Shown one piece after another: positions 2,169 to 63,506 of a DNA stretch of 64,000 nucleotides. Both the position numbers and the translations under genes were made by a program. The DNA is taken from IMG/VR virus record IMGVR_UViG_3300017963_000011, positions 1 to 64,000 of that record, one strand, 5' to 3'. This stretch comes from a virus. The notes under the pieces were generated by a model. It was given only the letters and a program-made list of their open reading frames with translations. It was not told the DNA's origin and searched no databases. Each line of letters starts with the position of its first letter. The stretch's first letter is position 1.

Positions 2169-2175
2169 GGTAGCG

Positions 2176-2631
2176 CTACCACTTGTACGTATTGGCGTAT
2201 TCATAGGGTATGATCTGGTTCTTGGATTTTGAATAGGCTGCGAGCACAAACACAGTGCGCTGTGTCTTGGAGAGAAGCGCTCTGAGTTTCCAGCCGTGAT
2301 CAGAGTCGACGGGGACTTCGTAGTGAATGGACTTGGAGTGGTTGAAGACCGAGATGGTCTCGCCCGCATCGACGTAAGCCTTCGTTTTGGGATGGAGCAC
2401 CAGCTTGAAGATCTGGAGCTTGGCGTCGAGGATGCCGCATGCCTTTAGAGTACCTCGAATACTCTTCGCCCCATCGGAGTATAGATCGCCGCAGACGGCA
2501 CATTGAAAACGGTAAGAGCAATGCTCGCAGCCCCAGGCGCAGCCGCAGTCCCACTCTTTGAGGTTGGTGGCGCAGCACGGGCGCGGCCCTCTATAGAAGC
2601 GCTTGTGTTTTTTGATGGGCTTGCGTTTCAT
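2176..2631 (-). CDS. Cys-rich hypothetical protein
   Basis: ORF in co-oriented gene run; stop TAG lies inside palindrome. Confidence 0.7.
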   Translation of the reverse strand: MKRKPIKKHKRFYRGPRPCCATNLKEWDCGCAWGCEHCSYRFQCAVCGDLYSDGAKSIRGTLKACGILDAKLQIFKLVLHPKTKAYVDAGETISVFNHSKSIHYEVPVDSDHGWKLRALLSKTQRTVFVLAAYSKSKNQIIPYEYANTYKW

Positions 2632-2638
2632 GATGGTG

Positions 2639-2809
2639 CTACCGCTCCTTCACTTTGATCTTGCCTTTATTTGCCGCTACTTCCTTTGCGCAAGGTGGGC
2701 ATAGGGGAATACGATCCAGGATAGAGCCCTTCGAGCACGTGATGACGTACTCGTATGATCCGTACTCGCCTTTGCGAAATTCTTTACCGCAGCGTTTGCA
2801 TTTTGGCAT
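2639..2809 (-). CDS. 56 aa Zn-finger protein (not in ORF track)
   Basis: MPKCKRCGKEF...LCPPCAKE; fills the gap between neighbours. Confidence 0.6.
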   Translation of the reverse strand: MPKCKRCGKEFRKGEYGSYEYVITCSKGSILDRIPLCPPCAKEVAANKGKIKVKER

Positions 2810-2818
2810 GACGTGTTC

Positions 2819-5425: not shown

Positions 5426-5760
5426 GAGACCATCTCGTTCCATTCCTTGACGGCTTTGATCATACCACTGCGTCCATGATATTTGTTCGGCCCCGTCTTG
5501 TGGCAATCGATACAAGTGACAATGAACCAGTTACCGAACGGAGGCCACATGCAGGTGTTCATCACGCCTGCCTTGCCGCCGCACGTACATGGTTTCACAG
5601 CCGCTGCAATCCGCGCTTTCTCAGCGAGTTGTTTTTCTCTCGATCTCTTTTCCCATTCTTCGTCTGACACAACAATCACCAACATTTCGTCAATCAAGGG
5701 CTTGATGATGCGTTTAGCACCGGCCTTGATCATTGCGTTCAGTAGTGATTTATCTTTCAA
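5422..5760 (-). CDS. Lar-like (restriction alleviation family) Zn-finger protein
   Basis: KPCTCGGKA...VTCIDC..TG...AVKEWN resembles Lar-family pattern. Confidence 0.55.
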   Translation of the reverse strand: MKDKSLLNAMIKAGAKRIIKPLIDEMLVIVVSDEEWEKRSREKQLAEKARIAAAVKPCTCGGKAGVMNTCMWPPFGNWFIVTCIDCHKTGPNKYHGRSGMIKAVKEWNEMVS

Positions 5761-6166
5761 ACCCGGCTGCTTCCAGGATTACATTCTGTGCCTTTGCCCG
5801 ACCGTCGAGCAGACACATGATGGCTTTGACCTTAGCTTCTGCATCTTCCATCCTGTCATGGCAGGAGCAGTGGGAGTCTTGCGTCTCGTGAAGTTCCTTG
5901 TTGAGATCCGCGATGGCCTGTTCGCTTGTGTCGTATTCGCTGCTGCGCTCGTCGAACTCACTCACGCAGCATTCGCATATATGTTGCATGGTACGTCCGT
6001 CGTCTGCATTGCTCCTTCCACAACGATAGCAGTCGATACTCTCCGTGTGCTTCTTGTAGAAGTCGAGTAGCCGCTCGATGATCTGCGCGGCTTTGACGTG
6101 TTTGCCTTCGTCGTATAACTTTGCTCCGAACTCCTCCAGCACTTTGATTTGATTGTCCGTCAACAT
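5750..6166 (-). CDS. Hypothetical protein, Zn finger plus coiled coil
   Basis: CYRC...CECC; TAATG-coupled start at 6166. Confidence 0.6.
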   Translation of the reverse strand: MLTDNQIKVLEEFGAKLYDEGKHVKAAQIIERLLDFYKKHTESIDCYRCGRSNADDGRTMQHICECCVSEFDERSSEYDTSEQAIADLNKELHETQDSHCSCHDRMEDAEAKVKAIMCLLDGRAKAQNVILEAAGFER

Positions 6167-6258
6167 TAAGCGCACCTCACATTCTGGAATTGTTTACGCC
6201 AATGGCGTACCTGTGCCGCGAGCCGGCGTAGCGCTACCACGAGAGTGTTCCAGATCAT
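6166..6258 (-). CDS. 30 aa peptide MIWNTLVVALRRLAAQVRHWRKQFQNVRCA (not in ORF track)
   Basis: ATGA overlap upstream, TAATG overlap downstream, GGTGA RBS; contains a palindrome copy. Confidence 0.5.
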   Translation of the reverse strand: MIWNTLVVALRRLAAQVRHWRKQFQNVRCA

Positions 6259-6773
6259 ACTTTCACCAATCTTCTTTTCCTGATCCTGCGTTCTAATTCT
6301 TTTTGTTCAGGTGGATCGTCGTCCATTTGGACTTCGCATACTTGTCGCGGGGCTGCAACTGGTAAGAAGTCGGTGTTTGCGAACAGATCCCATGGAAGAT
6401 TGATGTAGCTCATTGACATGGGGATCTGTGCTACATCGAGGGAAATACATTGTGTGAAGGTATAGGTCGTTTCAACGCCCTCTACCTCAGAATAGAAGAG
6501 GAGCATATAGCGCTCCATGTGACGTTCAAGGTAGGCGTAGACTTCGTTGCCGGCGCCGTCGTAGATCATTCGTCGTGAACGGAACTCTCTGAGTTGGATC
6601 TTGAACTTGCGAGTGGAGTAAGGGATTATGCCTTCTTCATCTTGCGAGCCCCGGCCGTCGTTGTGCAGTTCGATGGCCTCTTTAATGAGTTCTGTCACGT
6701 CAAGGAGTGAACCGGGATAAACTGGAATGCCTCTCATGTTGGGCACGGCGCACATGACGATGAAGTTGGGCAT
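6255..6773 (-). CDS. Hypothetical protein ending RKRRLVKV
   Basis: TGATG-coupled ORF. Confidence 0.65.
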   Translation of the reverse strand: MPNFIVMCAVPNMRGIPVYPGSLLDVTELIKEAIELHNDGRGSQDEEGIIPYSTRKFKIQLREFRSRRMIYDGAGNEVYAYLERHMERYMLLFYSEVEGVETTYTFTQCISLDVAQIPMSMSYINLPWDLFANTDFLPVAAPRQVCEVQMDDDPPEQKELERRIRKRRLVKV

Positions 6774-7700: not shown

Positions 7701-7935
7701 CGTTGCTCTCTTTCTCGATGAACTTCAAGTTGATCTCGAACTTGATACCTTTGAAAATTTTTCTCAGGGTGGGGTATCCGTGAATGGATTCTTTGAAGCG
7801 CTTATTCATTGCATCGCAGGTGTATTCGAGGTCAGTTCTGAGTTCGTATTCTAGCGAATCGAGTTCCCTCTGTACCCTTGCTCCGAATTCTTTAAGAACA
7901 GGGCCGACATCTACCGAAATCATTTTGATCTCCAT
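7675..7935 (-). CDS. Hypothetical protein
   Basis: TAATG-coupled ORF. Confidence 0.6.
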   Translation of the reverse strand: MEIKMISVDVGPVLKEFGARVQRELDSLEYELRTDLEYTCDAMNKRFKESIHGYPTLRKIFKGIKFEINLKFIEKESNDEPDNHCA

Positions 7936-8228
7936 TATGTCATCTTTACTTTCACGTCGTCTGGTTCGATGGTAGCGCTACTATCGAAATCTGGCTTGAC
8001 CTCGCCAAACGTAAGGGTGAAGGTTTGTTTGTTGATGAGCGCGGCTTTCTGGATTGCCTCAAACATCCTCTTGTATGTTACTGCTTCCGCCCAGGATATC
8101 TTCTCGAACTTGACTTCTAAGATGTCGTCAGCGCTAGTTACGATGCACGAGTAGCGGATCAGTTCTTGAGTCTCTTTTTCGTCGCGCTCGATCTTTGCTT
8201 TAACCGGCGCGGCTGCGCTAATGATCAT
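7935..8228 (-). CDS. Hypothetical protein
   Basis: ATGA-coupled ORF with GAGGAG RBS. Confidence 0.6.
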   Translation of the reverse strand: MIISAAAPVKAKIERDEKETQELIRYSCIVTSADDILEVKFEKISWAEAVTYKRMFEAIQKAALINKQTFTLTFGEVKPDFDSSATIEPDDVKVKMT

Positions 8229-8635
8229 CTGAACTCCTCTGGCCAGAATGGGTACATGTCCACGATTGTGGTTTCGACTGCACCTAGTTTGAATTCTTTG
8301 ATGAGTGGACCCTTGCAGATCAAAATCTCGTAGTCGTAGTGATTCTTTGCTGAGATCCAGGTCAAGATGAGTATGCAGTCTGCGAGTACGCGTTCTTCAG
8401 GAATGAGATTGTGTAGACGGTTGAAGAAGTCGTATAGCCGTTGCACCGAGATACGTGTGGTTTTGATCAGGTGATTTGCTAATGCCGCTTTGAACGCTTC
8501 ACGAGCGTGATAGCCGTTTCTGATTTCTTGTCCGTTGATAACTGGATGAACGAGTATGCCTTTATCAGTCCAATACTTGCGCTGGCGATTGGTGATGCCG
8601 GCATGTTTGCAAAGCTGATAGGCGTACATGATCAT
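8225..8635 (-). CDS. MerR-type HTH regulator
   Basis: QLCKHAGITNRQRKYWTDKGILVHP...RNGY matches MerR HTH pattern. Confidence 0.7.
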   Translation of the reverse strand: MIMYAYQLCKHAGITNRQRKYWTDKGILVHPVINGQEIRNGYHAREAFKAALANHLIKTTRISVQRLYDFFNRLHNLIPEERVLADCILILTWISAKNHYDYEILICKGPLIKEFKLGAVETTIVDMYPFWPEEFR

Positions 8636-9887: not shown

Positions 9888-9928
9888 GCCATTTCACCGT
9901 CCTCTCGCGCTCCATCGTTATGGTAGCG

Positions 9929-10579
9929 CTACCATTTGTAGCGTAAGAATTTCAACGCTTCATTCCTGATCTGTCGAATGCGCTCACGGGAGAAGCCGTA
10001 GCTCTTGGCGATCTGCGAGAGAGTTTCCGCAGGACCGCTGATCCCGTAGTGGCGCATGATGATGTCGCGCGATCTCACATCAAGCATGAACAATCGCTCA
10101 ATGATATAGCGTTCTGAGGCGTCAGAAATCGATAATTCTTCAGGCGATTGATTTCTTGCGGCAGCGGGTGATGGATGCCTGTCAGTATCGTCAAGTGAGC
10201 AGACGTTCTCGACCTCGAAGATCTCTTTGACTTCACGCAATGGCATACCAAGATATTCCGCGATCTCGATAAGACTCGGCGTGCCGCCGAGTCGGCGCTT
10301 GGCGTCGTCGATTTTGACTTTGCGATTCCAGACGTGATGTGGAAACCGGATCGTTCTGCTCTCTCGCAAGTGTTGGCGAATGCGTTGCATGATCCAGTAG
10401 GTTGCATAGGTGCCGAAGCGAACACCAACGTCCGGGTTGTATTTGCGTGCAGCAAACAGCAAGCCGATCATCCCTTCCTGGAAGAGTTCCTCCCTCATGT
10501 TGGGAGGAAACCTTCTGATCAGCTTGTGGACGAGTCCTTTGTTGTCAACTATGCGCTCTGTTTCTGTCATTACTATCAT
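9929..10579 (-). CDS. Sigma70-family RNA polymerase sigma factor
   Basis: Region 2 (ELFQEGMIGLL..ARKYNPDVGVRFGTYATYWI) and region 4 (ETLSQIAKSYGFSRERIRQIRNEAL); start re-called at 10579 or 10570. Confidence 0.93.
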   Translation of the reverse strand: MIVMTETERIVDNKGLVHKLIRRFPPNMREELFQEGMIGLLFAARKYNPDVGVRFGTYATYWIMQRIRQHLRESRTIRFPHHVWNRKVKIDDAKRRLGGTPSLIEIAEYLGMPLREVKEIFEVENVCSLDDTDRHPSPAAARNQSPEELSISDASERYIIERLFMLDVRSRDIIMRHYGISGPAETLSQIAKSYGFSRERIRQIRNEALKFLRYKW

Positions 10580-10622
10580 CACAACTAGATATGCACGTAG
10601 ATGCGCGTTTGGTCGCGTACAT

Positions 10623-10847
10623 GACAAAAACCCTCCCGCGCTTCGGCTTTGTGGGCCTCTGCTCGGAAGGGCTCTTGTTGCTTCCACTTGCGTGGCACCG
10701 GACGTAGACGGCTAATCCTTCATCGCGTCTTTTTCCGGCCTAGCGTGAGAAGCCAGTCGGTACGGATCAGTCACCTCTGACTGCGCGCTTGGCCTTCATT
10801 CCGGCTTGGCTGGCGGTAGTCGCGCTTCCCGCTTCGCCCAAGCGAGC
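10623..10847 (-). ncRNA. Putative structured RNA/leader with terminator-like 3' stem
   Basis: Several hairpins including CCAC-GCAA-GUGG and a 15 bp G.U-rich closing stem containing a U run; lies between a promoter and the sigma gene. Confidence 0.55.
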
Positions 10848-11905: not shown

Positions 11906-11912
11906 GGTAGCG

Positions 11913-12464
11913 CTACCACTTGACCTTTCTTTTGACTGATACGCGCTTGATTTTGCCAGTGTCGATGTCTGTTCCAAGGTCAATGTCGAGATCTACTTCA
12001 TCGGATGCAACGAGGCCGTGTTGCATTAAAATCTCGATCAACTTTTCACGTAAGCTACGTTGCCTTTGTTGTGTTGCTCTTGCTTCTAACGCTGTTTGAA
12101 CAGCAGCATCGATAGATGCTTGATCTATGCGGGCGCGTCTTCGTTGTCGAGCACGCCGAATACGATGTCCCCTTTCTGTATTAGGGTCATATATTTCTAC
12201 TCCTTCTGTGGCAGTTTCTTCTGGTTCATCGAATTGACCATTAAAAGCGGCATGGAGTCCATCCATGTCTGGTGTGTTAAGTGTCATGTCAATACGGATA
12301 GTTGGACAGAGATATCTACCACCGTCTTCGTAATTGTATTCCATCTCCCAGCGTTCCATGCTGCACCAAGTGCCGTCGCCTTTTTCGATGGCAGCGAGAA
12401 GCCAGCGGGCAAATGCTACAGCCTGAACATTTACACTCTGCCCGAATGTGTTGACTATTGCCAT
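11913..12464 (-). CDS. Hypothetical protein
   Basis: TAATG-coupled; stop inside palindrome. Confidence 0.65.
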   Translation of the reverse strand: MAIVNTFGQSVNVQAVAFARWLLAAIEKGDGTWCSMERWEMEYNYEDGGRYLCPTIRIDMTLNTPDMDGLHAAFNGQFDEPEETATEGVEIYDPNTERGHRIRRARQRRRARIDQASIDAAVQTALEARATQQRQRSLREKLIEILMQHGLVASDEVDLDIDLGTDIDTGKIKRVSVKRKVKW

Positions 12465-13666
12465 TATGCTGCCATCCTTTCACAGAACTCTATTCTTGCT
12501 CTTGCAATTTCGGCATATCTTTCATCTTTTTCTATGCCGAGAAAATCGATTCCTTTACGCACGGCTGCGCATCCGAACGAACCACTGCCGATGAATGGAT
12601 CGAGAACTCTCCCATTCTCTGGCACAACGAGATCGCATAGCCACTCCAAGAGGGAAATGGGTTTGACCGTTGGGTGCGGGTTCTTACGCTCGACAGGTGC
12701 CCACTTCGCATCGTGCTCTAGGCCACCGGGATTGACTCTATGAAGCATCAGAGTCGGGAGTTCTTCCAGGCCAGCTTCGCGTTCTTTTTTACTGGCCTTG
12801 GGGATGTAGCGGAAGCAAGGATAGAATATATCTGCATAGCCTAGTTCTTCGTATCCTTTTCTCGGTGCTGTCTTGCTCTTACAGCCACCGCAATAGTTTA
12901 TTTTACCCTTGCGTGAGTGGCTTCCCCTTCTTCGTATTCCTGCATGTAATTGCAAGTACGCAACTGGACAATCTGGCGCGCATAGGCCATTTTCCTCGCA
13001 ATCTGGAGAATGCGAGAATAAGAGATTGGGCGGCCAGCGCCCGTCTGGTTCATCTTGTCTGCCGGCGCCAAGCCCTCTTCCAAGAATAAGATTGTTCTTC
13101 TTTTTCTTTCTTGGTCTGACAAGTTTGTCTTTGCTTATGACTTCACATTTACGAATGTTGAGATAGCCTGTGCCAGTAGTGATGTCTTGCTTCTTAATTG
13201 AATTTTCGCTTAGTGGTTTGCGCACCATGATAATGGGCTCATGCGCCGGTTTAAGCGCTGTGCCAAGCCCGCGTTCTTTGTCATTGGTAGACTTGGGAAA
13301 CCCGGATGAATAGATCCAGTCTATCGAGTCACGCACGTCGAAACCGGCTAGTCTGAGCGAGATATCCATTAGACCAAGTGTGCGAGCCGATGCGAATACG
13401 AGCCCGTGCGCGCCAGGTTTCATCTTATCCATGATCTCTGCCCAGATGAAAGGAGGTGGAACGCACTTGTCCCACTCCTCTCGCATGAAGCCACCCGGCG
13501 AGACATACTCCATGCCGGAGTCCCAACGCATCCAGGCGCGGAGAAGACCGCGCAGGTTGTAGACGTCTCCCATGCCGTAGGGCGGATCGGTGATGAGCGC
13601 ATCGAATGATTCTGGTTTGATGCGCTCTAGCGCGTCTTCGCATTTAGCTCGTATGATCTTCCACAT
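12464..13666 (-). CDS. DNA methyltransferase (N6-A/N4-C family)
   Basis: ITDPPYG, GFPKS, LKPAHEPI, HPTVKP, VLDPFIGSGS motifs. Confidence 0.93.
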   Translation of the reverse strand: MWKIIRAKCEDALERIKPESFDALITDPPYGMGDVYNLRGLLRAWMRWDSGMEYVSPGGFMREEWDKCVPPPFIWAEIMDKMKPGAHGLVFASARTLGLMDISLRLAGFDVRDSIDWIYSSGFPKSTNDKERGLGTALKPAHEPIIMVRKPLSENSIKKQDITTGTGYLNIRKCEVISKDKLVRPRKKKKNNLILGRGLGAGRQDEPDGRWPPNLLFSHSPDCEENGLCAPDCPVAYLQLHAGIRRRGSHSRKGKINYCGGCKSKTAPRKGYEELGYADIFYPCFRYIPKASKKEREAGLEELPTLMLHRVNPGGLEHDAKWAPVERKNPHPTVKPISLLEWLCDLVVPENGRVLDPFIGSGSFGCAAVRKGIDFLGIEKDERYAEIARARIEFCERMAA

Positions 13667-15470: not shown

Positions 15471-15709
15471 ACTCCGTTCCTCTCAGTGTCAGTGACACCA
15501 TTGAGATGGACGGCCCAGCGGCAGATAGGCTTGTTCTTGCGGTCGTTGAAGAGTAACAGGGCGCCGATGCACTCGACGTGTGCTACGTCTTTCACGGGCA
15601 GTGCCCAAATGTCGCCATCTAAGCTGCATACCTCAAGATCATCATCGTACCTGGGGTCGTTGATGATCTTCCTGAATTCTTTTAACTTCATGCGGGCTGG
15701 GCTTTCCAC
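15467..15709 (-). CDS. Hypothetical protein
   Basis: Overlap-coupled ORF. Confidence 0.55.
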   Translation of the reverse strand: MESPARMKLKEFRKIINDPRYDDDLEVCSLDGDIWALPVKDVAHVECIGALLLFNDRKNKPICRWAVHLNGVTDTERNGV

Positions 15710-16455
15710 TAGATCTTCACCAGTCTCCGTAGTTTCTTTCCAGATGGCTTCGACATCATGCTCTTGGCCAAATCGATGACTTGACGCATTGTGCCAAGCT
15801 CTTGTTGCGCGTGTCTCAGATCGTCCATCGTGATTGTGAATTCACATTTGACATGACTCCAATCTTTCTCGGTATCTATTTTCTTGATCCTCTTGTCGAA
15901 TTGTGACCATTGACTACGTTCCTCGGGCGGCTTCTTCAATTCCAGATACATGAAGAGAAGCATAGCAGCGAGGATTTCATCTCTGATCTCGTGGTAGCCT
16001 TCCTCATCATCCATGCCAGTGCTGTCATAGAATGAGATGGCATTTCCGTTTGGATCTACAATGGTATCGCCGCCGGCCCAACCTTGCATTCCGCCTTGTA
16101 GGCTGACGAGGACGTTTCCATTCTCGTCGGCTTCACTGATAGCTGTGCCGATGATACCTGGATTTGTTGATTCTCCGTTGAGATTTCCACCAGCGCCAGC
16201 GGTTACGAGATCGCCGGCTCGGATTGGGGCACCGCTTGTTGAGACGGCATTTCCGATTTCTACGACTCCATGCCGAGTTACATCAACAGCAGTTCCTTCA
16301 GCATGACGTGATCTGGGCGGTTCGACAGCAAAGACTTCGTTGGGCAGAGAGCATTGCCGGGCAATCATCTTTGCCATTTGTTCTGCCCATGCTGGTGTAA
16401 TTTCCCCGTTTATTTGAATCTGATTGAAGATGATGTTGTCGTTTTTCTTTGCCAT
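15709..16455 (-). CDS. Protein with capsid-cement (DUF2190-like) domain, ending RRLVKI
   Basis: VDVTRHGVVEI...APIRAGDLVTAGAGG...IIGTAISEADENGNVLVSL. Confidence 0.55.
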   Translation of the reverse strand: MAKKNDNIIFNQIQINGEITPAWAEQMAKMIARQCSLPNEVFAVEPPRSRHAEGTAVDVTRHGVVEIGNAVSTSGAPIRAGDLVTAGAGGNLNGESTNPGIIGTAISEADENGNVLVSLQGGMQGWAGGDTIVDPNGNAISFYDSTGMDDEEGYHEIRDEILAAMLLFMYLELKKPPEERSQWSQFDKRIKKIDTEKDWSHVKCEFTITMDDLRHAQQELGTMRQVIDLAKSMMSKPSGKKLRRLVKI

Positions 16456-16483
16456 TGCGCGCCGCCCGTTGTAGCGCTACCAT

Positions 16484-17144: not shown

Positions 17145-17411
17145 CTACCCTTCTTTTTCACGATTGTCAACGGCTTCCGCGTTGCGGGCACCGTAGTATT
17201 TTGATCCGAGGGCTCCAATGGTGAACATGAGAAGGCCGTTGCCGAGGAGACCCATCCAGCCCCACTTGATCCATGCGTTGACCCATGATGCGAGAAAAGC
17301 GATCACTGCCGAGATGAGACATGTGAGCACGAAGAAGCCGTACTCCAGAGCATACGGCTTTACTTCTTCATTCGTCGTCGAATTCATCTTCTGTTTCTCC
17401 GTCTTCTTCAA
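17145..17411 (-). CDS. Two-TM membrane protein
   Basis: Two hydrophobic helices. Confidence 0.6.
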   Translation of the reverse strand: MKKTEKQKMNSTTNEEVKPYALEYGFFVLTCLISAVIAFLASWVNAWIKWGWMGLLGNGLLMFTIGALGSKYYGARNAEAVDNREKEG

Positions 17412-44127: not shown

Positions 44128-44157
44128 TGGTAGCGCTACCATACGAGAGGAAAACCT

Positions 44158-49714: not shown

Positions 49715-49740
49715 TGGTAGCGCTACAACGGGAGTAGATT

Positions 49741-50670
49741 ATGGCGAACAAGACCGCGCTAGTAGGAACGAACCGGGTCAATAGTTCTGGCGATCCAGCA
49801 GTTCAGAACTGGAACACGGGGGATACTCTCACTGACCCTGATGGCAATGTCATCCAGACAGGGGCTAATGCGCCATCTCCTTCTGACGCGACTCCTCAAC
49901 AGGTTGGCACTGGCACTGGTCAGCCTGGAACAAGCAACGACTACTCGCGAGCCGACCATGTTCACCAGACGAACGCGCAGCCCGGCACTGCTACTCCACA
50001 AGACGTGGGCTTGACAGGTGTTGTCGGGACAGCTACAGCTTATGCCCGCGAAGATCACGTTCACGGTGGCGCTGTCGTAGGCACTGCGGGCTATCTGGAA
50101 CAGGCAGCTACGGCAGCGGTGGCCACTTACACGGTGAACAACTACTCTGTCGGTGCTGATAACTTGCTCGTGTTCGTGAATGGCGCCTACGTGCCGAAGG
50201 ATCAGTATACCGAGGACAATCCAACGCAGATCACTTTCACAACCTATCCTGGTCTTCCTTTTGTTGGTAGCGAAAAGATTGTCACATTCGTACCCAAGGG
50301 TGGTCTGGGATTGACAAATCAGCTTTGGGAAAAACAAGTTGCTGGAGCAAGTCAAGCAGTCTTCAATCTGGCGGGTTCTTACGATGTCGGCACTCACAGT
50401 CTTCTCGTGTTTGTCGATGGGACTCTCAATCTCGTAGGCGCCAGCGAGGACTACCAAGAGACGGGTACGCAGCAAGTCACGTTCAACACTCCTCTTTCTG
50501 GTGGAGAAGAAGTCCTCTTTCTCGTTCCGCGAGGATCTACAACCGAGAACTCTGGAGCGTACAGCGCTGGAACCCCCGGCGACTGGAATGGTGCTCCGAC
50601 AACGATCGGCGATGCGCTTGATAGGCTCGCCGCAGAGCTTTCGAGACTCATCGGATATCCGATTCCGTAA
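49741..50670 (+). CDS. Tail fibre-type protein 1
   Basis: Shared N-terminal motif; SRADHVH/AREDHVH repeats; two LLVFV.G modules. Confidence 0.7.
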   Translation: MANKTALVGTNRVNSSGDPAVQNWNTGDTLTDPDGNVIQTGANAPSPSDATPQQVGTGTGQPGTSNDYSRADHVHQTNAQPGTATPQDVGLTGVVGTATAYAREDHVHGGAVVGTAGYLEQAATAAVATYTVNNYSVGADNLLVFVNGAYVPKDQYTEDNPTQITFTTYPGLPFVGSEKIVTFVPKGGLGLTNQLWEKQVAGASQAVFNLAGSYDVGTHSLLVFVDGTLNLVGASEDYQETGTQQVTFNTPLSGGEEVLFLVPRGSTTENSGAYSAGTPGDWNGAPTTIGDALDRLAAELSRLIGYPIP

Positions 50671-52580: not shown

Positions 52581-52609
52581 AGTGTAGCGCTACAACGAGG
52601 GGGTATTAA

Positions 52610-53599
52610 ATGGGAAGGGATGGGGCAGTGGCCGATCAGATTAGAATTCTGGTCGTCGATAATGACGAAACATCTATCCAGTCTCTTCGAGACATGCTTG
52701 GTGAATATGATTTCGAGGTCGAGGACGTTCGGGATTCTCGCAAAGTCCTAGATCATCTTCGACAAACCAATGACTATTCTCTTCTCATTCTTGACATCAA
52801 CATGCCTCACAAGGATGGCGTGACGCTGGCGTCTCAGGTCAGAAATACTCTTCACTACGACACGCCTATCTTGTTCGTATCGGCTGATATCAGCAAGACC
52901 AACCTATCGCGCATTCGTAGAATGAGTCTCGGTGGCCACACCGTAGAGTTTCTGAAGAAGGGTAGCTTCAATTCAGAGATCCTCTTCAACGTAGCTATGG
53001 CCTTGATCAAGGAACGCATCTCCACAAACAACGTTTCTGAGATCAAAGGACGCGTTTCCAAGATGCAGAAATCCCAGGATGAGATCAAAGAAACAATATC
53101 TGATTTCATCCTGAAGCTGGAAGACAAGCCACTCGTGTCCATTGATCATTGCAAGGCTCAATCCGAGGAACTTGTGAAGTCCCTTCGCAAGGAGGTCATT
53201 GGCATCACCCTCGGGGAAGCTAGTAAGAAACTAGATGAGGCACTGAAGCCTGAGCCTCTCGCTGTGAGGATTGGCGCCGCGCTCACGGAGAAGCCCCAAG
53301 CTATCGAGCCTGCTCTTGAACCAAATCTCATGTTTGCAAAGACACGCCAAGCCGCCGCATGGAAGATGGCCGTCTATTTCTTGCTCGTTATCTTTGCTGG
53401 GCTCTGCATTTTCTGGGGAAACATGTGGACCAAAGCTGATCATGCCGACGATGGGGTTCGTAAGCTAGAGATCCAGCAAAAGCAAGTTATCGATACGATG
53501 CAACAACAAACGACTGCGATGAAATCTCATTTCAGGCGTCTTCAGAAAATGTTCAAGTCCAACCCAAGCATGTGGGTTACAACCAAAACGCACCCGTAA
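52610..53599 (+). CDS. Response-regulator receiver domain, coiled coil and single TM, in the lysis cassette
   Basis: RILVVDND, LLILDINMP, DG, PILFVSA, EFLKK; TM MAVYFLLVIFAGLCIFWG. Confidence 0.85.
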   Translation: MGRDGAVADQIRILVVDNDETSIQSLRDMLGEYDFEVEDVRDSRKVLDHLRQTNDYSLLILDINMPHKDGVTLASQVRNTLHYDTPILFVSADISKTNLSRIRRMSLGGHTVEFLKKGSFNSEILFNVAMALIKERISTNNVSEIKGRVSKMQKSQDEIKETISDFILKLEDKPLVSIDHCKAQSEELVKSLRKEVIGITLGEASKKLDEALKPEPLAVRIGAALTEKPQAIEPALEPNLMFAKTRQAAAWKMAVYFLLVIFAGLCIFWGNMWTKADHADDGVRKLEIQQKQVIDTMQQQTTAMKSHFRRLQKMFKSNPSMWVTTKTHP

Positions 53600-54978: not shown

Positions 54979-55008
54979 AGCCGGGGCGCAAGGCCCCGGC
55001 TCTTTCTT
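54979..55008 (+). terminator. Intrinsic terminator at the convergence of late and replication blocks
   Basis: AGCCGGGGC-GCAAG-GCCCCGGCT followed by CTTTCTT. Confidence 0.75.
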
Positions 55009-55615
55009 ATCCCATCTTCTTTTGGATTTCTGCGATCTCAGCCGCGACTTGTTGGTCGCTCTTAGCAGCTTTGGCCTTGAAGATCTCAGATGGGCTCATC
55101 GGTTCGCCACACTCGCCTACGACTACGCACTTGGCGTAGTACATCTTAGCCTGCTTCGAGATGTGTTCGAGGTTGGTCTCATACATGTCCTGGATCTTCT
55201 TCCAACCATCGTAATCCATACCGAGAATGTGGCAGTATTCTAGCATGGGTATGTGCTCTTGTGTGAGCTTGTTCATCGCTTTGACGAAGTTGCCCAGGAC
55301 TTCTATGAAACGCATGATCGACTTGACGGTGAAACGCTCGGCGGCCAGTGTAATCTTGGCGTCATCCGTGATGCGCAGATTGCACTTGACGCACTTGAGC
55401 TTGCCCTTCTTGATCTGTTCATCGGTGTATGTTCTAGGCTTGTAGCCACGGTGGTAGATCAATGCTCCCACGAGCAGACGCCCTTTCTCGGGCTTCTTGG
55501 CGTAGCAGAAGGCTTCCTCTTTACATTGGCTGCATTCGGCATAGAACTTCATGCGTTTCATCATCTGTTCTGCAATTTGTTGGACTTGGGGACCGAGGTT
55601 GGGAGGAATTGCCAT
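55007..55615 (-). CDS. Hypothetical Zn-finger protein
   Basis: CSQC, CVKC; ATG follows palindrome. Confidence 0.7.
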   Translation of the reverse strand: MAIPPNLGPQVQQIAEQMMKRMKFYAECSQCKEEAFCYAKKPEKGRLLVGALIYHRGYKPRTYTDEQIKKGKLKCVKCNLRITDDAKITLAAERFTVKSIMRFIEVLGNFVKAMNKLTQEHIPMLEYCHILGMDYDGWKKIQDMYETNLEHISKQAKMYYAKCVVVGECGEPMSPSEIFKAKAAKSDQQVAAEIAEIQKKMG

Positions 55616-55622
55616 GGTAGCG

Positions 55623-56633
55623 CTACCACTCTTTCAGTAGTGAGTCCCAATCACTTGAGGCTCGTCTCTTGTTTACGATATGGACGGAATTCTTGACACA
55701 GCGCAAGAATTCTTGCGCTGTTTTCAGATCATCGGCATCTTTGCCATCCGGGAAGATTATTCTTGTGATACTCTCGACTTCCCCCGAGAGTTCTTTGATC
55801 ATATCCGCAGCACCATCGTTACCTGCCTCGTCGTTATCGAGGGCTATGAAGACGCTGCTCCAGTTCTCTAGGATAAGAGCAAGGTGGTCGTCCGACGCCA
55901 CTGCTCCGAAAATGGCAATGGCCGACTTGAAACCGAATACCGAAAGACGGATGACATCGAGAGGGCCTTCGCAGACAATAACGTATGGAGATCCTTTTGC
56001 GCGGTCGAAGTTGTATAGGATGCGGTTGCGGGGCAGACCCGGCTGGTGATCCCACTTGCCCAGATACGCTTCCTTTCGTATGTCTCGGGCTGTAAAGCCT
56101 CTAAGCTCTCCATCAAAGTGAACAGGAAAGAAAACGTAATCCGGCCGAGTTCGATCGTAGGAGACGCCAAAGGGACGAAGATCTTTGTTTCGATAACGTC
56201 GAGTTTTGGGCCACGGATGATTCCTCGGCATGGGCTCCAGTGTTCGCGGCCACTCGAAAACGGGAAGGGGTCCATCATCATCCTCTTCTGATACGTCAGG
56301 AATGTTCTTGATAATCTGAGCCCACGAGAGTTGCTCTTTTTGGAAATTGGCTAGGATCTCCAGAGCATGTTCTCGTGAACAGTCAATGCCAGTGAGCTTC
56401 TTCTCCATCAACTGAATGAACCGTATGAATTTGCCACCACCGCACTTCGGCTTGCCTCTCTCTTTAGCAAAACATTTCCATTTGCCATTGTGGCGATTGA
56501 TCGAGAAGTTGAGGGGCGTCTTGCCACTACTCTCATGGAGGGGACACTTGCAGTAGATGTTCTTGTTTGACGTGTTGTCCTTGAGGACGTCAACGAAGTA
56601 ATGATCGAGGATCTCACGTACAGGCTGGCTCAT
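55623..56633 (-). CDS. DNA primase (CHC2 Zn finger plus TOPRIM)
   Basis: CPLH...WKCF..CG; VCEGPLD; LDNDEAG; GKDADD. Confidence 0.93.
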   Translation of the reverse strand: MSQPVREILDHYFVDVLKDNTSNKNIYCKCPLHESSGKTPLNFSINRHNGKWKCFAKERGKPKCGGGKFIRFIQLMEKKLTGIDCSREHALEILANFQKEQLSWAQIIKNIPDVSEEDDDGPLPVFEWPRTLEPMPRNHPWPKTRRYRNKDLRPFGVSYDRTRPDYVFFPVHFDGELRGFTARDIRKEAYLGKWDHQPGLPRNRILYNFDRAKGSPYVIVCEGPLDVIRLSVFGFKSAIAIFGAVASDDHLALILENWSSVFIALDNDEAGNDGAADMIKELSGEVESITRIIFPDGKDADDLKTAQEFLRCVKNSVHIVNKRRASSDWDSLLKEW

Positions 56634-57253: not shown

Positions 57254-57591
57254 ATCTCGCCGTTCAGACGTCTAATGAAGTGTGGGTTAACCTCACAAGA
57301 GATGAAGGTCTTCTTGCCCTTCATGCCCGCGAAGAGGCCAGTCTTGGTCCCTTGGCGGGCTCTCTTTTTGAGCCTGATAGTGCAGAAACCACGGAACCAC
57401 ATGTAGCCCTTGTTGCCAACACACTTGGACATCGCCCGGATGATGGCCGAAGCGATCAGTCTGTGATTGAGCGTACTGATTGAGATGTCCTTGATGATCC
57501 CCTTCCGGCTCAGTGTTCGTAGGATCTCGGCGTAATCCTCGACACCGAAGAAGTTCTTACTCGTTCCCGTTATTCTCTTGAACCCTGGCAC
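57250..57591 (-). CDS. HU/IHF-like DNA-bending protein
   Basis: Helical N-terminus, then WFRGFCTIRLKKRARQG resembling the GFGTF..R.AR.G arm. Confidence 0.7.
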   Translation of the reverse strand: MPGFKRITGTSKNFFGVEDYAEILRTLSRKGIIKDISISTLNHRLIASAIIRAMSKCVGNKGYMWFRGFCTIRLKKRARQGTKTGLFAGMKGKKTFISCEVNPHFIRRLNGEM

Positions 57592-58300
57592 GTGTCACAT
57601 CTCCTTCTAGTGTAAACCTGATTGCGAGGCCAGCGCGGGCTGCGTATTCGTCCTCGTTAGTCACCATGATGAGTTGAATATCGAACTCGTCTACTATCTT
57701 ATGCAGCAGATCCATGAAGTAGTCACGTCGATCTGGAGAAAGATTGGTTACTGGCTCGTCAGCAAACAAGATACGATCTGGATCGGTCGGGTGGTTCACG
57801 AGCAAGATGATGCGAAGAATGAAGAATGCCACATCGGCTGCTCCACCACCAGTACATTCGAGGATGGGTTGCTCGATGGTAGCGCTACCATACTGACGAG
57901 TGACTGTGAAATAGGTTTCTAGTTGGTTCCTTTTCTCTATGGTCTTAATGTTGAAAGATACGATGTTGTCGTTGACCAGTTTCTGCAAGATGTCTGTGAT
58001 GACAGCCTGGATCGCCTTTGTTGGATCGTGTTCGAGAAGATAGTCAGATGTTGCTACGAGTAGCTTGTGAACGTTCTCCTCGATCTTGAGCGTCACCTTC
58101 TTTTCTTTTATAGTCCCTTGGATCTTTTTGGATTGCTCGATCAAGAGCGCAGCGTTGGCCGCTCTCGCGAGTTGCTCCCGCGACACCTTCTTCGAGATCT
58201 CTCTGGCGAACTTGCGCTGCTCGGCCGCCGTCTTGGTTCCGAGCTTGGAGTCCTGTAACTGATACAAGACCGTTTTCATTTGTATCAAGTCAGCGATCAT
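57557..58300 (-). CDS. SbcC/Rad50-like ATPase, C-terminal half
   Basis: Signature-like TGGG, Walker B ILFADEP, QLIMVTN; start re-called at 58300. Confidence 0.8.
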   Translation of the reverse strand: MIADLIQMKTVLYQLQDSKLGTKTAAEQRKFAREISKKVSREQLARAANAALLIEQSKKIQGTIKEKKVTLKIEENVHKLLVATSDYLLEHDPTKAIQAVITDILQKLVNDNIVSFNIKTIEKRNQLETYFTVTRQYGSATIEQPILECTGGGAADVAFFILRIILLVNHPTDPDRILFADEPVTNLSPDRRDYFMDLLHKIVDEFDIQLIMVTNEDEYAARAGLAIRFTLEGDVTRARVQENNGNE

Positions 58301-58692
58301 ACGTCGACTTCCTCGTTGAGGATCTTGTAAACCATGCGAGACGCCCGAAAGTAGCCTTGCTGGTACGGATCTTGGAATTCTTCCGGGCCTTCTGGCATGT
58401 GTATGCCTTCTACCCATCTGAAGAGGCGAGCGATGGTTTCGTACTTGGCCTGATTCATCAAGGCCATGATGATTGCCCAATCCTTGAGCATCCCACATGT
58501 TTCCATGCTGTCTGCGGCTTTTCTAGCCTCGATTACGTCGGCCGGCGGTTTGTAATACACTTCAAGCGTGTCAATGACGGCTTTGAGATGTCTCGCCTCA
58601 ATCTCTATGTCATAGGTAAAGCCTTCAGTGTGCTCCGCTAGTGCCTGCTTGATCGCATCAATGGCTTCTCCAAACTCTTTCTCTTTGTTCAT
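58297..58692 (-). CDS. Hypothetical protein
   Basis: ATGA-coupled. Confidence 0.65.
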   Translation of the reverse strand: MNKEKEFGEAIDAIKQALAEHTEGFTYDIEIEARHLKAVIDTLEVYYKPPADVIEARKAADSMETCGMLKDWAIIMALMNQAKYETIARLFRWVEGIHMPEGPEEFQDPYQQGYFRASRMVYKILNEEVDV

Positions 58693-60387: not shown

Positions 60388-61909
60388 CGAAGAAGTCATC
60401 CTCCTCGTCTTCATCTTCACTGTCATCTACCAGATCGTCTTGAGGCTCTGATCTCTTGAACTCCGAGAAACCCATCTTCCAGAGTTCCTTGCGGAGATAG
60501 AAGTCGCGTGGTTGAAAGTACCTGCCCTTGACGCATTGAAGCCTGAGTAGTTGATCTGAAAGAGGCAGAAGGCCCCACATGCCGTCGAGATTGTCCATGA
60601 TTTTATCGGCATCTCTCAGGTGCTTGGCCGTGAGTCGCTTGACACCCTCGGCCGATCGGTTCAACTGGAGCGCGGAGAGGATCGGTATTTCACGGGCTCT
60701 GGCAAAACCGTGTAACTGTTCGGCGAGTTGACCCCAATACAGATCGGGCCTTTGAACGTTCGGGGGTACGTAGAGTAGGTTGAAGTAGTCAATGATAACA
60801 AGGACATCTTTCCTACCATGCTTGGCAAGGAAGTTGTCAACCATTCGGAAGATGGTTGTGAGCTTTGTCTGGAGCGGGATGTCGACGATTTGATAGTTCT
60901 CGTTGTCTTCGATCGTATTGATCCAAGCATCGACACCCTCCTGTACTTGAGCAATCGTCTCGTCTGAGACTTGCTTGGTCATTAAAGCCTCGAAGCTCAC
61001 GCCACAAAGATAGGCCATAATGCGATAGCGAAGTTCTTCAAGGACTGGCATTTCAAGATTGAACTCCAGCACGAGATGGCCTGCCGTAGCAGCCACGTTA
61101 CCGCACTGGAGAAGTAGTGCAGACTTACCTATACCAGAACGGGAGGCGAACATGTAGAGGCGTTTGTCCATCCACCCGCCGATATTCTCTGTGAGTTTGG
61201 GAAAGGGAGTAGGCAATCCTTTGACGATGCGGTTGCCATCCTCATCGACGTCTAGCTTGTCAATGCGGAGCTGCTCAACGCCATCTGGGAGGATCTCCGT
61301 GACGTTATAGATACGCACAGAGGTGCCCATCGTATCGAGCTTGATCTGCTCGGTCTTGGTTGCAACATGGTCTAGGGTGAAGATGCTACGATCTCGTTCA
61401 CCCGACTTGATCATGAGCTTGCACTCTTCTTTGTAATCGCAAGTGCGGCACTTCTCTTCCTTCTTGTCATAGTTGCCCATGCATCTAAGGGTATAGAAGG
61501 CCGCCATCTCCCGAGTCAGCACCTTGTGTCTGAACTCCCGATACTCGAAGATGAGATCGTCAAGCCGTTCTTTCCACTCCCCTAGCTTGATCTTCCTGTG
61601 CTTGCGTAGCTCGTTCCACTTCTTCTTGTAAGATGCGATCCTGGCACGGCCTGCCCGTCTAGTTAGGAGCATCTTCTTCACATAGGAGAACGTCACAAGC
61701 TCCGCATGTTTCTCGTAGTATTCTAGCGCGCAGTGTGCAATGAAGATGTTTTCTTTCTTGCCATGCGTCATCTCCGTGCGCTCCGAGAACTCATAGAAGA
61801 GATCCTCGCTATAATCTGCACGGGCATAGTGCTCGACGGCCTTTGTATTGCTAACTAATCCAGCAACCACGAGCGTATGCGTGTCTGGCGCCTTCGAAGC
61901 CATACTCAC
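60380..61909 (-). CDS. DnaB-like replicative helicase
   Basis: ASRSGIGKS, FNLEM, IIDY, LQLNR. Confidence 0.92.
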   Translation of the reverse strand: MSMASKAPDTHTLVVAGLVSNTKAVEHYARADYSEDLFYEFSERTEMTHGKKENIFIAHCALEYYEKHAELVTFSYVKKMLLTRRAGRARIASYKKKWNELRKHRKIKLGEWKERLDDLIFEYREFRHKVLTREMAAFYTLRCMGNYDKKEEKCRTCDYKEECKLMIKSGERDRSIFTLDHVATKTEQIKLDTMGTSVRIYNVTEILPDGVEQLRIDKLDVDEDGNRIVKGLPTPFPKLTENIGGWMDKRLYMFASRSGIGKSALLLQCGNVAATAGHLVLEFNLEMPVLEELRYRIMAYLCGVSFEALMTKQVSDETIAQVQEGVDAWINTIEDNENYQIVDIPLQTKLTTIFRMVDNFLAKHGRKDVLVIIDYFNLLYVPPNVQRPDLYWGQLAEQLHGFARAREIPILSALQLNRSAEGVKRLTAKHLRDADKIMDNLDGMWGLLPLSDQLLRLQCVKGRYFQPRDFYLRKELWKMGFSEFKRSEPQDDLVDDSEDEDEEDDFFDE

Positions 61910-62349
61910 ACCGTTTCATACTCGATCGTGACAAAGCAAAAATAGATCAGTTCTTCTTCCTCATTCTTGAAGAATTCCAGGCGTGTGAGCCTGACCTCCA
62001 GAATGAGTTTGTGTTTCACCAGGACATTCACGATGTCCTTGAGCTTGGCTTTCTTCTTGCCTTTGCCAAGAGTTGTCTTGGCTGGTACGTAGCCGATGTT
62101 GAGCCACCCTCTGGAACCAGAGTAGACGTCGATCGCCACAGCCTTGTCATCGTGTTCGTTCTCTGGTTCAAGCCTGAGTCTTGTTCTGATCGATGCCAGC
62201 CCTTGCTTATATTTCAGGCGAGACAAGGCGTCCTTGAGCTTTCCCCCGGCTCTCTTCTTGAGAACCCTCCGTAGCTTCTTCAGGATAGCCTGACGGCCAT
62301 CCATTGTGACGCCGGCAACCCTGAATGTATAGACTTGTTCCATCCTCAC
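61906..62349 (-). CDS. HIRAN domain protein
   Basis: VAGVT...LEPENEHDDKAVAI...IGYVP. Confidence 0.85.
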   Translation of the reverse strand: MRMEQVYTFRVAGVTMDGRQAILKKLRRVLKKRAGGKLKDALSRLKYKQGLASIRTRLRLEPENEHDDKAVAIDVYSGSRGWLNIGYVPAKTTLGKGKKKAKLKDIVNVLVKHKLILEVRLTRLEFFKNEEEELIYFCFVTIEYETV

Positions 62350-63506
62350 CCCTCATCATTCTCGGCGCCGCGAATGGTAGCGCTACCACCAAGCGATAGC
62401 TTCTTGGCGCATGCTTCCGGGAGCGGTTCAAGAGTAAATGGACAGATCTCGTGTTCTTGTAGGAAGAGATAGAGATCGTATTGAGCTTCTTCAAGCTCGT
62501 CACGTTTTTCATGAAGATTGTGGTCGACATCTAGCAAGTATTGCTCGACAACTTCTATACGCTTTGCCTGATCCACCACTTGTAAGTACGCACTGTAGAG
62601 TGCCTCGATATCTTCGACACCTTCCCCGGCGGCGAGTAATTCAGAAGGTTCGAGGTCTGGGATCTCAGGAATGCGATTAGTGATTTCTATGATCGAACCA
62701 AGGGAACTGATCTCCTCGACTATAGCAGTAGAATCAATAACCTCAAGGCTTGCGCGCAAGTCTGCAAGTTCTTCCTTGACGGCCGCGCTTTCAGCATTGA
62801 TCTGTTTGAGCTTCTTACTCTTGAGGATCACCTTAGACAAACGTTGGTGCTCGGCTAAGAGTTCATCACAACATAGATCATCATCCGGGATTGTGGCTTG
62901 GATGTTCTCGATCTCTACCTTTTTATTCTCTAACTCTTCCTGAGCCGATGTGATGTCTTGTTTGATGTTGCGGATCTGTGCGTTGGTTTCTTTGAGCGCA
63001 CTATCCACAGCGTTACGGCCAGACATAGAACCAAGAAGTTTCGATATCTTCGATGGCTTGAGAGCCAGTGGCAAGATGCGATCGAACTGGCCTATGAAGT
63101 TGAGCGAGACCTTCTCGTTGACGTCTTCGATGTCAAGGTTGGCGATGCGTGTGCGCTTAATCAAACCCTCTGGGATCTGCTTCTTGTACTTGCGCCAGGG
63201 CTCTTTCTCACCGGAGACTTTGATGTAGTCGTCGAGGACTCTTCCGGTTGCTGAAATATCAGTGTGCCGCTTCAGCTTGTAGTCGGTGTGATCGACAAGA
63301 ACTGCCATGTCAGTTTCGCCGCACCGTATCCACGCCTTGCCCAGAAGATAGGCGTAACGGGTTCCTCGTATGAACGAGGACTTACCAGAGTCAGTCGATC
63401 CGTGAATTGCGACTAGCCTTATAGGTTCTCCGTCGCTACCAGTCAAGGTCAATGTCGTCGTCTTGTGACTCTGAAAGTTCCGAAACTTCGTCTTCCTGAT
63501 CGGCAT
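62346..63506 (-). CDS. SbcC/Rad50-like ATPase, N-terminal half
   Basis: NFQSH, Walker A GSTDSGKS, Q-loop FIGQFD, coiled coil, ICPF; start re-called at 63506. Confidence 0.85.
   Translation of the reverse strand: MPIRKTKFRNFQSHKTTTLTLTGSDGEPIRLVAIHGSTDSGKSSFIRGTRYAYLLGKAWIRCGETDMAVLVDHTDYKLKRHTDISATGRVLDDYIKVSGEKEPWRKYKKQIPEGLIKRTRIANLDIEDVNEKVSLNFIGQFDRILPLALKPSKISKLLGSMSGRNAVDSALKETNAQIRNIKQDITSAQEELENKKVEIENIQATIPDDDLCCDELLAEHQRLSKVILKSKKLKQINAESAAVKEELADLRASLEVIDSTAIVEEISSLGSIIEITNRIPEIPDLEPSELLAAGEGVEDIEALYSAYLQVVDQAKRIEVVEQYLLDVDHNLHEKRDELEEAQYDLYLFLQEHEICPFTLEPLPEACAKKLSLGGSATIRGAENDEG

Follow-up and report, generated by a model that had tools for sequence, protein, structure and literature searches.

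A perfect 10-bp dyad at even spacing around an uncultivated phage genome and its possible reading by a lineage-specific dimeric protein

Dispersed invariant dyad repeats were described in 2015 in one group of actinophages and have never been explained. In these Cluster O mycobacteriophages the repeat is a 17-bp dyad (TGTTCGG-NNN-CCGAACA), of which phage Corndog carries 34 copies with invariant arms and only three one-mismatch sites genome-wide (PMC4351075). Approximately 14 of the Corndog sites are intergenic, 10 lie near gene 5' ends and 10 are located in genes, and their positions are mostly common to relatives. The host genomes checked lack the motif, and the phage shows no obvious sign of being temperate. 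A dimeric DNA-binding protein was inferred, and the function was left open (PMC4351075). These repeats are the closest published analogue of the element analyzed here, the perfect 10-bp palindrome GTAGCGCTAC (the dyad), which recurs along a 64,000-nucleotide stretch of viral DNA (the window). The window is the first 64 kb of the 105,134-bp record IMGVR_UViG_3300017963_000011 from IMG/VR, representing an uncultivated phage with a G+C content of 54%, and the 123-bp terminal repeat of the record suggests that the assembly is circular or permuted. The literature was searched for the exact 10-mer, with no relevant result.

Number, spacing and placement of the dyad sites

The original prediction, made by a reader of the window sequence, was that 19 exact copies of the dyad form a genome-wide binding lattice. 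All 19 copies were recovered at identical coordinates, compared to a mean of 0.01 in dinucleotide shuffles of the window, and the whole record contains 35. The proposed count against a Markov background gave an expectation of 0.04-0.46 copies for the whole genome with models of order 1 to 4. One-mismatch variants of the dyad number only five in the genome, near the chance level of approximately three by our own estimate; thus, there is no halo of decayed sites, and the functional-looking copies are all perfect. While the 10-bp core is invariant across the phage sites, the outer bases vary around the consensus RTG-GTAGCGCTAC-CAC(G), and they complete the 14-mer TGGTAGCGCTACCA at 13 of the 35 sites, 8 of which lie in the window. 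The two longer palindromes that had been pointed out, a perfect one of 18 bp (29733-29750) and one of 24 bp with a single mismatch (7965-7988), are both present.

The sites lie approximately 3 kb apart. On the circular genome the 35 gaps range from 458 to 6120 bp with a coefficient of variation (CV) of 0.53, which was reached in only 3 of 100,000 trials of uniform placement (P=3e-5) and in 5 of 100,000 when sites are placed at random gene starts (P=5e-5). Both extremes deviate from random expectation, the largest gap being smaller (P=9e-5) and the smallest gap larger (P=0.004). Gaps between the window sites measure 1070-5732 bp, as had been noted (1.1-5.7 kb), and the selection on spacing suspected at that time is confirmed by these tests against random placement. 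The spacing of the dyad sites is itself constrained.

With respect to genes, of the 28 sites below 94 kb, 18 extend at least partly outside the called coding sequences, whereas non-coding DNA makes up 12% of that region, and 14 of the 28 are located just ahead of a called start (binomial P 1.6e-6). At five of the latter sites the TAG within the motif is the stop codon of the upstream gene. A Shine-Dalgarno (SD) sequence begins 3-9 nt past the motif at seven sites, and an ATG follows 1 nt past the motif at three to five. Genes were called with a self-trained, home-made gene caller, and single junction or in-gene assignments are therefore soft; for the window we count 12 junction and 7 in-gene sites instead of the 11 and 8 given previously. 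The seven in-gene window sites use the two reading frames that avoid TAG. The 19 window sites are listed below, with genes on the minus strand marked as such.

2170-2179: site 1; motif TAG (minus strand, 2176-2178) is the stop of open reading frame (ORF) 2176-2631 (minus); ATG at 2168, 1 nt past the motif
6228-6237: site 2; intergenic, between 6255-6773 (minus) and 5750-6175 (minus)
7972-7981: site 3; in the 3' end of 7935-8228 (minus), core of the 24-bp one-mismatch palindrome, just downstream of a MerR-like gene
9923-9932: site 4; motif TAG is the stop of a sigma-70-family gene, 9929-10687 (minus); next start (9887) 35 nt on
11907-11916: site 5; motif TAG is the stop of 11913-12464 (minus)
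16471-16480: site 6; intergenic, start of 15709-16455 (minus) 15 nt downstream
17816-17825: site 7; divergent region between the conserved leftward gene 17371-17742 (minus) and terL, 44 bp upstream of the -35 element of a TTGACA-17-TATTAT promoter
21628-21637: site 8; within a 649-aa gene, read as DGSAT
22698-22707: site 9; intergenic, between the 649-aa gene and a 650-aa gene
28022-28031: site 10; within 27707-28159, read as VVAL
29737-29746: site 11; 18-bp perfect palindrome between the tail-tube gene and 29768-30169; SD AAGGGAG 9 nt downstream
35059-35068: site 12; within a 954/978-aa tail gene, read as RSAT
40791-40800: site 13; within a 933/945-aa tail gene
44130-44139: site 14; intergenic, between a stop at 44127 and the SD and start of 44158-44562
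49717-49726: site 15; intergenic, 3 nt ahead of the SD of 49741-50670
52584-52593: site 16; intergenic, 3 nt ahead of the SD of 52610-53599, a receiver-domain protein gene heading the lysis genes
55617-55626: site 17; motif TAG is the stop of a Toprim primase-like gene, 55623-56633 (minus); ATG of 55007-55615 (minus) 1 nt past the motif
57879-57888: site 18; within 57557-58498 (minus)
62377-62386: site 19; in the last 31 nt of the AAA_23 (SbcC-like) gene 62346-63596 (minus), ahead of the SD and start of the next gene

The dyad differs from the start-associated sequences of Cluster K mycobacteriophages (SAS/ESAS), which are asymmetric and found only directly upstream of translation starts: it is symmetric, approximately half of the sites abut a start, and in the window seven sites are located in genes and one in the divergent region. 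An upstream activating role at sigma-54-like sites was rejected, as the dyad lies within 40 bp of only two of nine such sites. At two copies (genome 96354-96388 and 101387-101421), GCGCGCGTATAR, a promoter-like word that recurs in the accessory arm, comes 13 nt after the dyad, and the dyad would overlap a -35 position at these places. The divergent-region site 7 has a near-consensus promoter in its vicinity:

17870-17898 (plus): sigma-70 promoter TTGACA-17-TATTAT, 11 of 12 matches, ahead of terL; conserved in four lineages

The dyad lies upstream of this promoter, 44 bp away in the window and tens of bp away in related phages; because the distance varies, the dyad is not part of the terL promoter. 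A sigma-54-like match, TGGCACGACGCTTGCT at 17855, overlaps the same promoter. The TGGCAC-N5-TTGC match is found in none of the relatives at this place, and the sigma-54 call may be a by-product of the sequence ...GCTTGACA.

Lineage-specific alleles and the form of the recognized site

Megablast of 20 kb of the phage against cultured phages gave no match, and tblastn of the portal protein against the same group gave identities of 36% or less, with no Cluster O phage among the best 15 matches listed; thus, no cultured relative, and no host, emerged from these searches. Fragments of related uncultured phages were recovered by TerL alignment combined with pattern scans, their TerL being 53-58% and their tail tube protein 61-64% identical to those of this phage. 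A further TerL homologue (P0004, 55% identical) is encoded on a 103-kb contig. In the fragments L075, L076, L231, and L241, which we term lineage B (58% identity in TerL, 67% in the portal, and 64% in the tail tube), the same 10-bp core is flanked as GTC-GTAGCGCTAC-GAC instead of GTG..CAC, with six sites in 16 kb and two more in the tail region. Fragment L097 (TerL 56% identical) also has the core upstream of terL. In contrast, lineage C (L246, tail tube 61%; L094, TerL 53%) has no GTAGCGCTAC in these fragments and instead carries a 17-bp dyad, GTCGTATC-W-GATACGAC, which lacks the central CG. These alleles occupy syntenic places:

17816: upstream of terL; lineage B at L075:2047, core in L097 (1240), lineage C allele in L094 (3736)
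22698: junction of the 649-aa and 650-aa genes; lineage B at L075:7034, lineage C allele in L246 (2268)
29737: junction following the tail-tube gene; lineage B at L231:873 and L241:5647, lineage C allele in L246 (9301)
35059: in the 954/978-aa tail gene; lineage B at L231:6164

The junction following the tail-tube gene is built alike in three lineages, with a stop codon, an TGGATATC box, the dyad allele, AAGGGAGTACC, and an ATG. This phage and lineage B use identical RSAT codons at the in-gene site 35059, although most of the neighboring codons differ, mostly synonymously, and the wobble base of the next Thr codon is C here and G in lineage B, matching the flank allele of each. Synonymous conservation in related phages, which the original prediction had named as a check on the lattice, is thus seen in lineage B as codons frozen at 35059. 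The in-gene sites 21628 and 28022, on the other hand, are lineage-specific gains through amino acid changes at tolerant positions; the former lies in a poorly conserved stretch, and relatives have VMAI or IIAF in place of the latter. By comparison of these sequences, sites turn over, but selection at the DNA level keeps their density, their key positions, and their lineage-specific sequence.

Several other elements near the sites are shared between lineages. A box TGGATATC(A/G)CC with a GATATC palindrome is located 5-9 nt upstream of the dyad at window 29712-29724, L241:5628-5638, and L246:9284-9294. A G4-loop-C4 hairpin stands beside the dyad ahead of the 650-aa gene, as GGGGACCAACCCCCC in this phage (window 22720-22735) and as GGGGCGAACCCC in L246 (2252-2263), on opposite sides of the dyad in the two phages. 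The pair of leftward genes beside terL is kept in four lineages (window 17148-17742, minus; L075:1260-2031; L097:415-1360; L094:3080-3671) and encodes a protein of approximately 125 aa with a beta-sheet and a long helix, for which no matching fold was found, and a small membrane protein with two helices. The first of these proteins has, in L075 and L097, an extra N-terminal Cys-rich domain (CxxxCPY..C) that is lacking in this phage.

The form of the alleles bears on what kind of molecule reads them. Every allele is symmetric right through its center (GCGC or TC-W-GA). The flanks do not covary within sites (permutation P 0.95-0.99, with or without G-U pairs), complementarity within sites being below that between sites, and the folding energy of the sites is the same for sense and antisense strands and no better than that of chimeric controls. 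Nor is there significant polarity of the flanks with strand or transcription (14 right-only vs. 6 left-only sites; two-sided P of approximately 0.1, our own estimate), and the asymmetric A at position -3 stems from abutting ATG codons. In the five bacterial genomes examined, each with several 14-mer matches among those listed, cores are few, with 2-9 per genome of 3-7 Mb. Because the alleles are symmetric, non-covarying, non-polar, and lineage-specific, and because cores are rare in these bacterial genomes, the pattern points to a dimer that is symmetric, recognizes duplex DNA, and co-evolves with the phage; the lineage-specific symmetric alleles fit such a dimer better than a hairpin loop or a host factor. 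The reader of the dyad is probably encoded by the phage.

Candidate readers and gene content of the phage

Among the proteins of the phage, the best available candidate for the reader is the product of the MerR-like gene next to site 3:

8225-8635 (minus): P0036, 136-aa CvkR-like MerR-type winged-helix protein, in a four-gene block bracketed by sites 7972 and 9923

By sequence, P0036 matches CvkR with a phmmer E-value of 0.042 and 15% identity, and it has no Pfam match at E<=0.01. Its AlphaFold model (pLDDT 79, pTM 0.77) shows an N-terminal winged helix-turn-helix (HTH) and a beta-strand dimerization domain as in the CvkR structure 7xn2, which is the top Foldseek match over the full length (E 6.8e-4, TM 0.62, 144 columns). 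The following matches cover the HTH part and are the MerR-family chains GlnR, CueR, MtaN, TnrA, and SoxR. CvkR binds an inverted repeat of 15 nt as a homodimer (PMC9938897). Because of the fold match and the binding of an inverted repeat by the CvkR dimer, P0036 is the leading candidate among possible readers as judged from its modeled structure.

The MerR-like protein had been named as a possible binder before and holds up structurally. Two other nominees fared less well, the HU-like protein (57250) lacking Pfam or PDB sequence support and the winged-HTH protein (1341-1655) having only a sub-threshold HTH_45 match. We also considered and rejected the conserved leftward gene 17371-17742 (minus), whose product was modeled with a pLDDT of 78 and has no fold match (best Foldseek E 0.8; best VIA Z 5.3). 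An acidic HTH protein (genome 78435-79001) is a generic HTH protein instead of a LacI-family one. It belongs to a plus-strand gene pair (genome 77440-79001) within a minus-strand region, which encodes a 332-aa protein with a weak Sigma70_r2 match and an HTH protein of 188 aa whose N- and C-terminal tails are strongly acidic. From these features, the pair may constitute a sigma-like factor split in two, or else an HTH fused to a DNA mimic.

Pfam and PHROG scans of approximately 150 ORFs, many of which have no family, identified a Mu-type portal, TerL, tail genes, a sigma-70-family protein, and the possible split sigma-like pair, together with PolB, a DnaB-like helicase, a Toprim primase, SNF2, SbcCD-like proteins, RecA, an RNase H-like protein, and ThyX. 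The RecA homologue is full length (genome 63436-64605, minus; Pfam RecA E 7.6e-41) and straddles the window end; because RecA occurs beside SbcCD-like, SNF2, and PolB genes, the phage appears to have a toolkit for recombination-dependent replication. Three DNA methyltransferases are encoded, two of N6_N4 type and one N6-adenine-like (window 2-862, minus; window 12464-13666, minus; genome 83801-84550, minus). The first of these runs across the record start, and its lineage B homologue of 609 aa contains a dyad site. PHROG tallies for the early ORFs include the labels 'DNA binding protein', 'replication initiation protein', and 'Q-like antiterminator'. The same scans found no ParB, LacI, HNH, integrase, or RAYT.

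The two most repeated 10-mers of the genome are the dyad and a second palindrome, TCTCGGCGCCGAGA, which has the same N5-GCGC-N5 build and is restricted to the 70-105 kb arm. It is found 28-151 bp upstream of four minus-strand sigma-54-like sites (genome 95989, 100167, 101842, and 102810, within 94-105 kb; L108, L109), where it could serve as an enhancer-type upstream site.

Explanations of the dyad and known systems

The explanation that we tentatively favor, and that as a whole falls a little short of an even chance, is that the dyad with its RTG and CAC flanks is recognized by a single dimeric protein with sequence specificity and two-fold symmetry. This protein would be specific to the phage lineage, most likely phage-encoded, and a regulator of transcription. 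The reader would bind double-stranded DNA, such as the duplex GTGGTAGCGCTACCAC. Selection would maintain one perfect site approximately every 3 kb around the whole chromosome, placing sites into short spacers between cistrons where possible, at times sharing the upstream stop codon, and writing them into the coding sequence in long genes. The most speculative step is that binding acts on transcription along polycistronic units, where it might form a roadblock or an insulator between adjoining cistrons or might give a regulator a place to load or anchor. Such an effect on the expression of polycistronic units is suggested by the preference for junctions and by the location of sites ahead of ribosome-binding sites. 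The outcome would resemble stoperators or KorB operators, although the sites here are symmetric and the phage does not appear to be temperate. Of the originally proposed lattice, what stands is that the dyads are selected, spacing-constrained DNA recognition sites, as indicated by exactness, spacing, synteny, and the synonymous freeze; the interpretation placed on it holds in part.

Several observations weigh against this explanation. Operators of transcription factors normally tolerate mismatches, and 35 perfect cores out of 35 look more like the recognition site of an enzyme. Several of the junctions that contain a site are too short for a promoter or terminator, seven sites of the window are located in genes, and no association of the dyad with sigma-70-like promoters or intrinsic terminators was found in the 1-20 kb examined; because of these cramped junctions, in-gene sites, and missing association, the transcriptional role is inferred rather than seen. 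Even spacing is not an obvious need of a regulator, and placement at junctions could be the cheapest way to meet a spacing rule, intergenic spacers being tiny. As for the candidate reader, P0036 has only two detectable homologues among 1.8 billion representative proteins, none of them in viral contigs, no homologue occurs in the retrieved fragments of relatives, and no protein was linked to the dyad sites. The second palindrome TCTCGGCGCCGAGA moreover competes for the same candidate.

A broader proposal, which we consider quite unlikely, is that the dyads form a phage chromosome-marking system in which a symmetric phage reader, possibly P0036, docks approximately every 3 kb and delimits insulated units for transcription, compaction, or protection, the co-evolving alleles serving as an identity or incompatibility code between related phages. 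To our knowledge, non-temperate tailed phages have not been reported to possess a system of this kind.

The perfection of the sites could instead mean that they are targets of a site-specific enzyme, a nickase or cutter or a DNA-modifying enzyme, used for packaging, recombination-dependent replication, or defense evasion. Recognition would then be all-or-none, in agreement with 35 perfect sites and near-variants at about chance level, and the phage has RecA, SbcCD-like proteins, and three DNA methyltransferases. The nick motifs of phages tf and Rembedalsseter (TACTRTGMC and WACTRTGAC), phiKMV, and T5 are likewise short exact words with few near-variants (PMC3517423, PMC11780129). Phage tf has 14 nicked 9-mers and 17 sites in all when single substitutions are allowed (PMC3517423), and its density of 14 sites in 46 kb, similar to the 13 sites of Rembedalsseter, corresponds to approximately one per 3.3 kb. 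Such motifs are enriched approximately 10- to 20-fold and are conserved across divergent relatives with little DNA similarity, both in and outside genes (PMC11780129), and the T5 consensus R/GCGCRGG shares the central GCGC. However, the published nick motifs are all asymmetric and occur on one strand only, whereas the dyad, as a palindrome, reads the same on either strand at each site and its flanks show no significant bias between strands, and symmetric nicking within 10 bp would equal a double-strand cut. The motifs of the tf group cluster toward one genome end, unlike the evenly spread, junction-biased dyad, and the published nicks have been demonstrated physically. Beyond the SbcCD-like and RNase H-like proteins, the scans found no HNH, GIY-YIG, HUH, or other nuclease family. 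Thus, we regard an enzyme target as unlikely. The same toolkit of RecA and SbcCD-like proteins, along with the location of sites where genes and modules meet and, in two long tail genes, close to the N-terminal end, could indicate recombination hot spots or module-boundary linkers for exchange between co-infecting relatives or for the start of recombination-dependent replication. Protein identity to a relative does shift across sites, from 27% to 57% at 17816 and from 64% to 41% at 29737; yet identity varies gene by gene anyway and no mosaic breakpoints were demonstrated, lineage-specific alleles would hinder rather than promote exchange between lineages, and a stretch of 10-16 bp offers little length for homologous exchange unless a dedicated enzyme takes part, and none was found. 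This possibility is very improbable.

The resemblance to LacI-family operators that had been noted for the dyad is real. The sequence AGCGCT is also the center of the ideal symmetric lac operator, and the 14-mer TGGTAGCGCTACCA, present at 13 of the 35 phage sites, has the LacI-type frame TG-N4-CG-N4-CA. Our scan of 185,579 species' genomes listed at least 120 bacterial loci, and among the matches listed TGGTAGCGCTACCA lies within approximately 1.1 kb of a LacI-family gene in 31 of 120, with LacI plus Peripla_BP domains confirmed by Pfam in three. In Proteobacteria the 14-mer stands single or, often, paired 25-230 bp apart in promoter regions beside LacI-family and TRAP or TTT transporter genes. 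These at least 31 loci (L154, L198, L206, L220, and approximately 27 others) belong to Mesorhizobium, Burkholderiales, Halomonadaceae, Sneathiellales, and other groups, and TGGTAGCGCTACCA appears to be the operator through which a widespread LacI-family regulator controls TRAP/TTT transporter operons. The phage sites could accordingly be host LacI-family operators that soak up the repressor, de-repressing a transporter or catabolic operon, or that make phage development dependent on a sugar-acid inducer, all the more as a LacI-family gene is absent not only from the window, as originally stated, but from the whole phage (headpiece profile hmmsearch best E 0.54; tblastn best E 0.09). Against a host reader, however, the relatives leave the LacI frame at the same junctions, carrying TC..GA for TG..CA or the 17-bp allele without the central CG, a change that is not to be expected of sites read by a host LacI orthologue. 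In bacteria, where copies are few per genome, second operators keep the outer TG/CA and vary in the inner bases, whereas the phage keeps 35 invariant inner cores and varies the outer bases, and titration explains neither the even spacing nor the syntenic placement. Since the bacterial cases look local, with 2-9 cores per genome examined, these regulators are probably low in abundance. The LacI-type host regulator suggested as a reader is therefore improbable. A host word of the Chi, uptake-sequence, or REP-like kind was rejected, as the listed genomes have almost only single 14-mer matches and the five multi-match genomes the same few cores. A probability as low as that of the host LacI-type reader is assigned to an RNA or single-stranded DNA hairpin, acting as a processing or stability element or as a translation insulator 5' of ribosome-binding sites, which an RNA-binding protein or nuclease may read. 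This would agree with the SD and ATG positions just past the motif, with an outer CTTCC/GGAAG pairing at site 35059, and with the change of the outer stem from G:C to C:G and of the center from GCGC to TCWGA between lineages, which is readable as stem covariation plus a loop change. But the sites lack the covariation and the folding energy expected of a hairpin, predicted folds often leave the palindrome unused, the core is invariant although a stem could vary, and the 'loop' letters are symmetric in both alleles, which is needless for a loop. Sites deep in genes and in the divergent region also do not suit a role linked to ribosome-binding sites.

Compared to what was known, the statistical proof that the spacing itself is selected, the allelic series at the same junctions (GTG/GTC flanks, GCGC/TCWGA centers), which predicts a co-varying reader protein, and a named structural candidate for the reader are new. 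Finding the reader would uncover either a new way in which lytic phages control or insulate transcription across the whole genome or a symmetric counterpart of the enigmatic programmed DNA breaks.

With regard to known systems of dispersed sites, the KorB operators of the IncP plasmid RK2 (OB, TTTAGCGGCTAAA), of which RK2 has 12, and ParB-parS are likewise identical palindromes dispersed on a replicon, and the half-site TAGC/GCTA is common to OB and the dyad, whereas OB has an odd center. KorB loads at OB as a sliding clamp and acts on promoters up to 1.5 kb away (PMC11790492); with such loading, spacing would therefore matter. The Pfam scans of the phage ORFs found no ParBc (PF02195) match, though divergent forms could escape, and the parS/matS-type organiser considered in the original prediction has no ParB or partner gene here. 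CvkR (Alr3614), the type V-K CRISPR-associated transposon (CAST) repressor (PDB 7xn2; PMC9938897), acts at a few promoter operators and not at a genome-wide array, and the phage has no CAST context.

The Cluster A stoperators bound by the L5 repressor gp71 likewise comprise two to three dozen copies of one short site, distributed genome-wide, mainly in short intergenic spacers, at approximately one per 2-3 kb, and their consensus is likewise lineage-specific and matched to a phage protein. Stoperators are asymmetric, oriented with transcription, and used for prophage silencing in temperate phages (as summarized in PMC4351075), whereas the dyad core is a perfect palindrome with a flank consensus that is symmetric in either orientation. 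No integrase, partition system (ParA/ParB), or recognizable immunity repressor was among the families detected in the approximately 150 scanned ORFs.

The Cluster O dyads remain the nearest counterpart. Copy number and invariance are alike (35 exact and 5 one-mismatch sites here vs. 34 and 3 in Corndog), as are the genome-wide spread in and between genes and the positions common to relatives, while lineage, motif sequence, and probable host phylum are unrelated. The Cluster O repeats have a 3-bp non-palindromic center and are denser toward one genome end; in contrast, the dyad sites of this phage are spaced significantly evenly, carry lineage alleles at syntenic places, and abut ribosome-binding sites in half of the cases.

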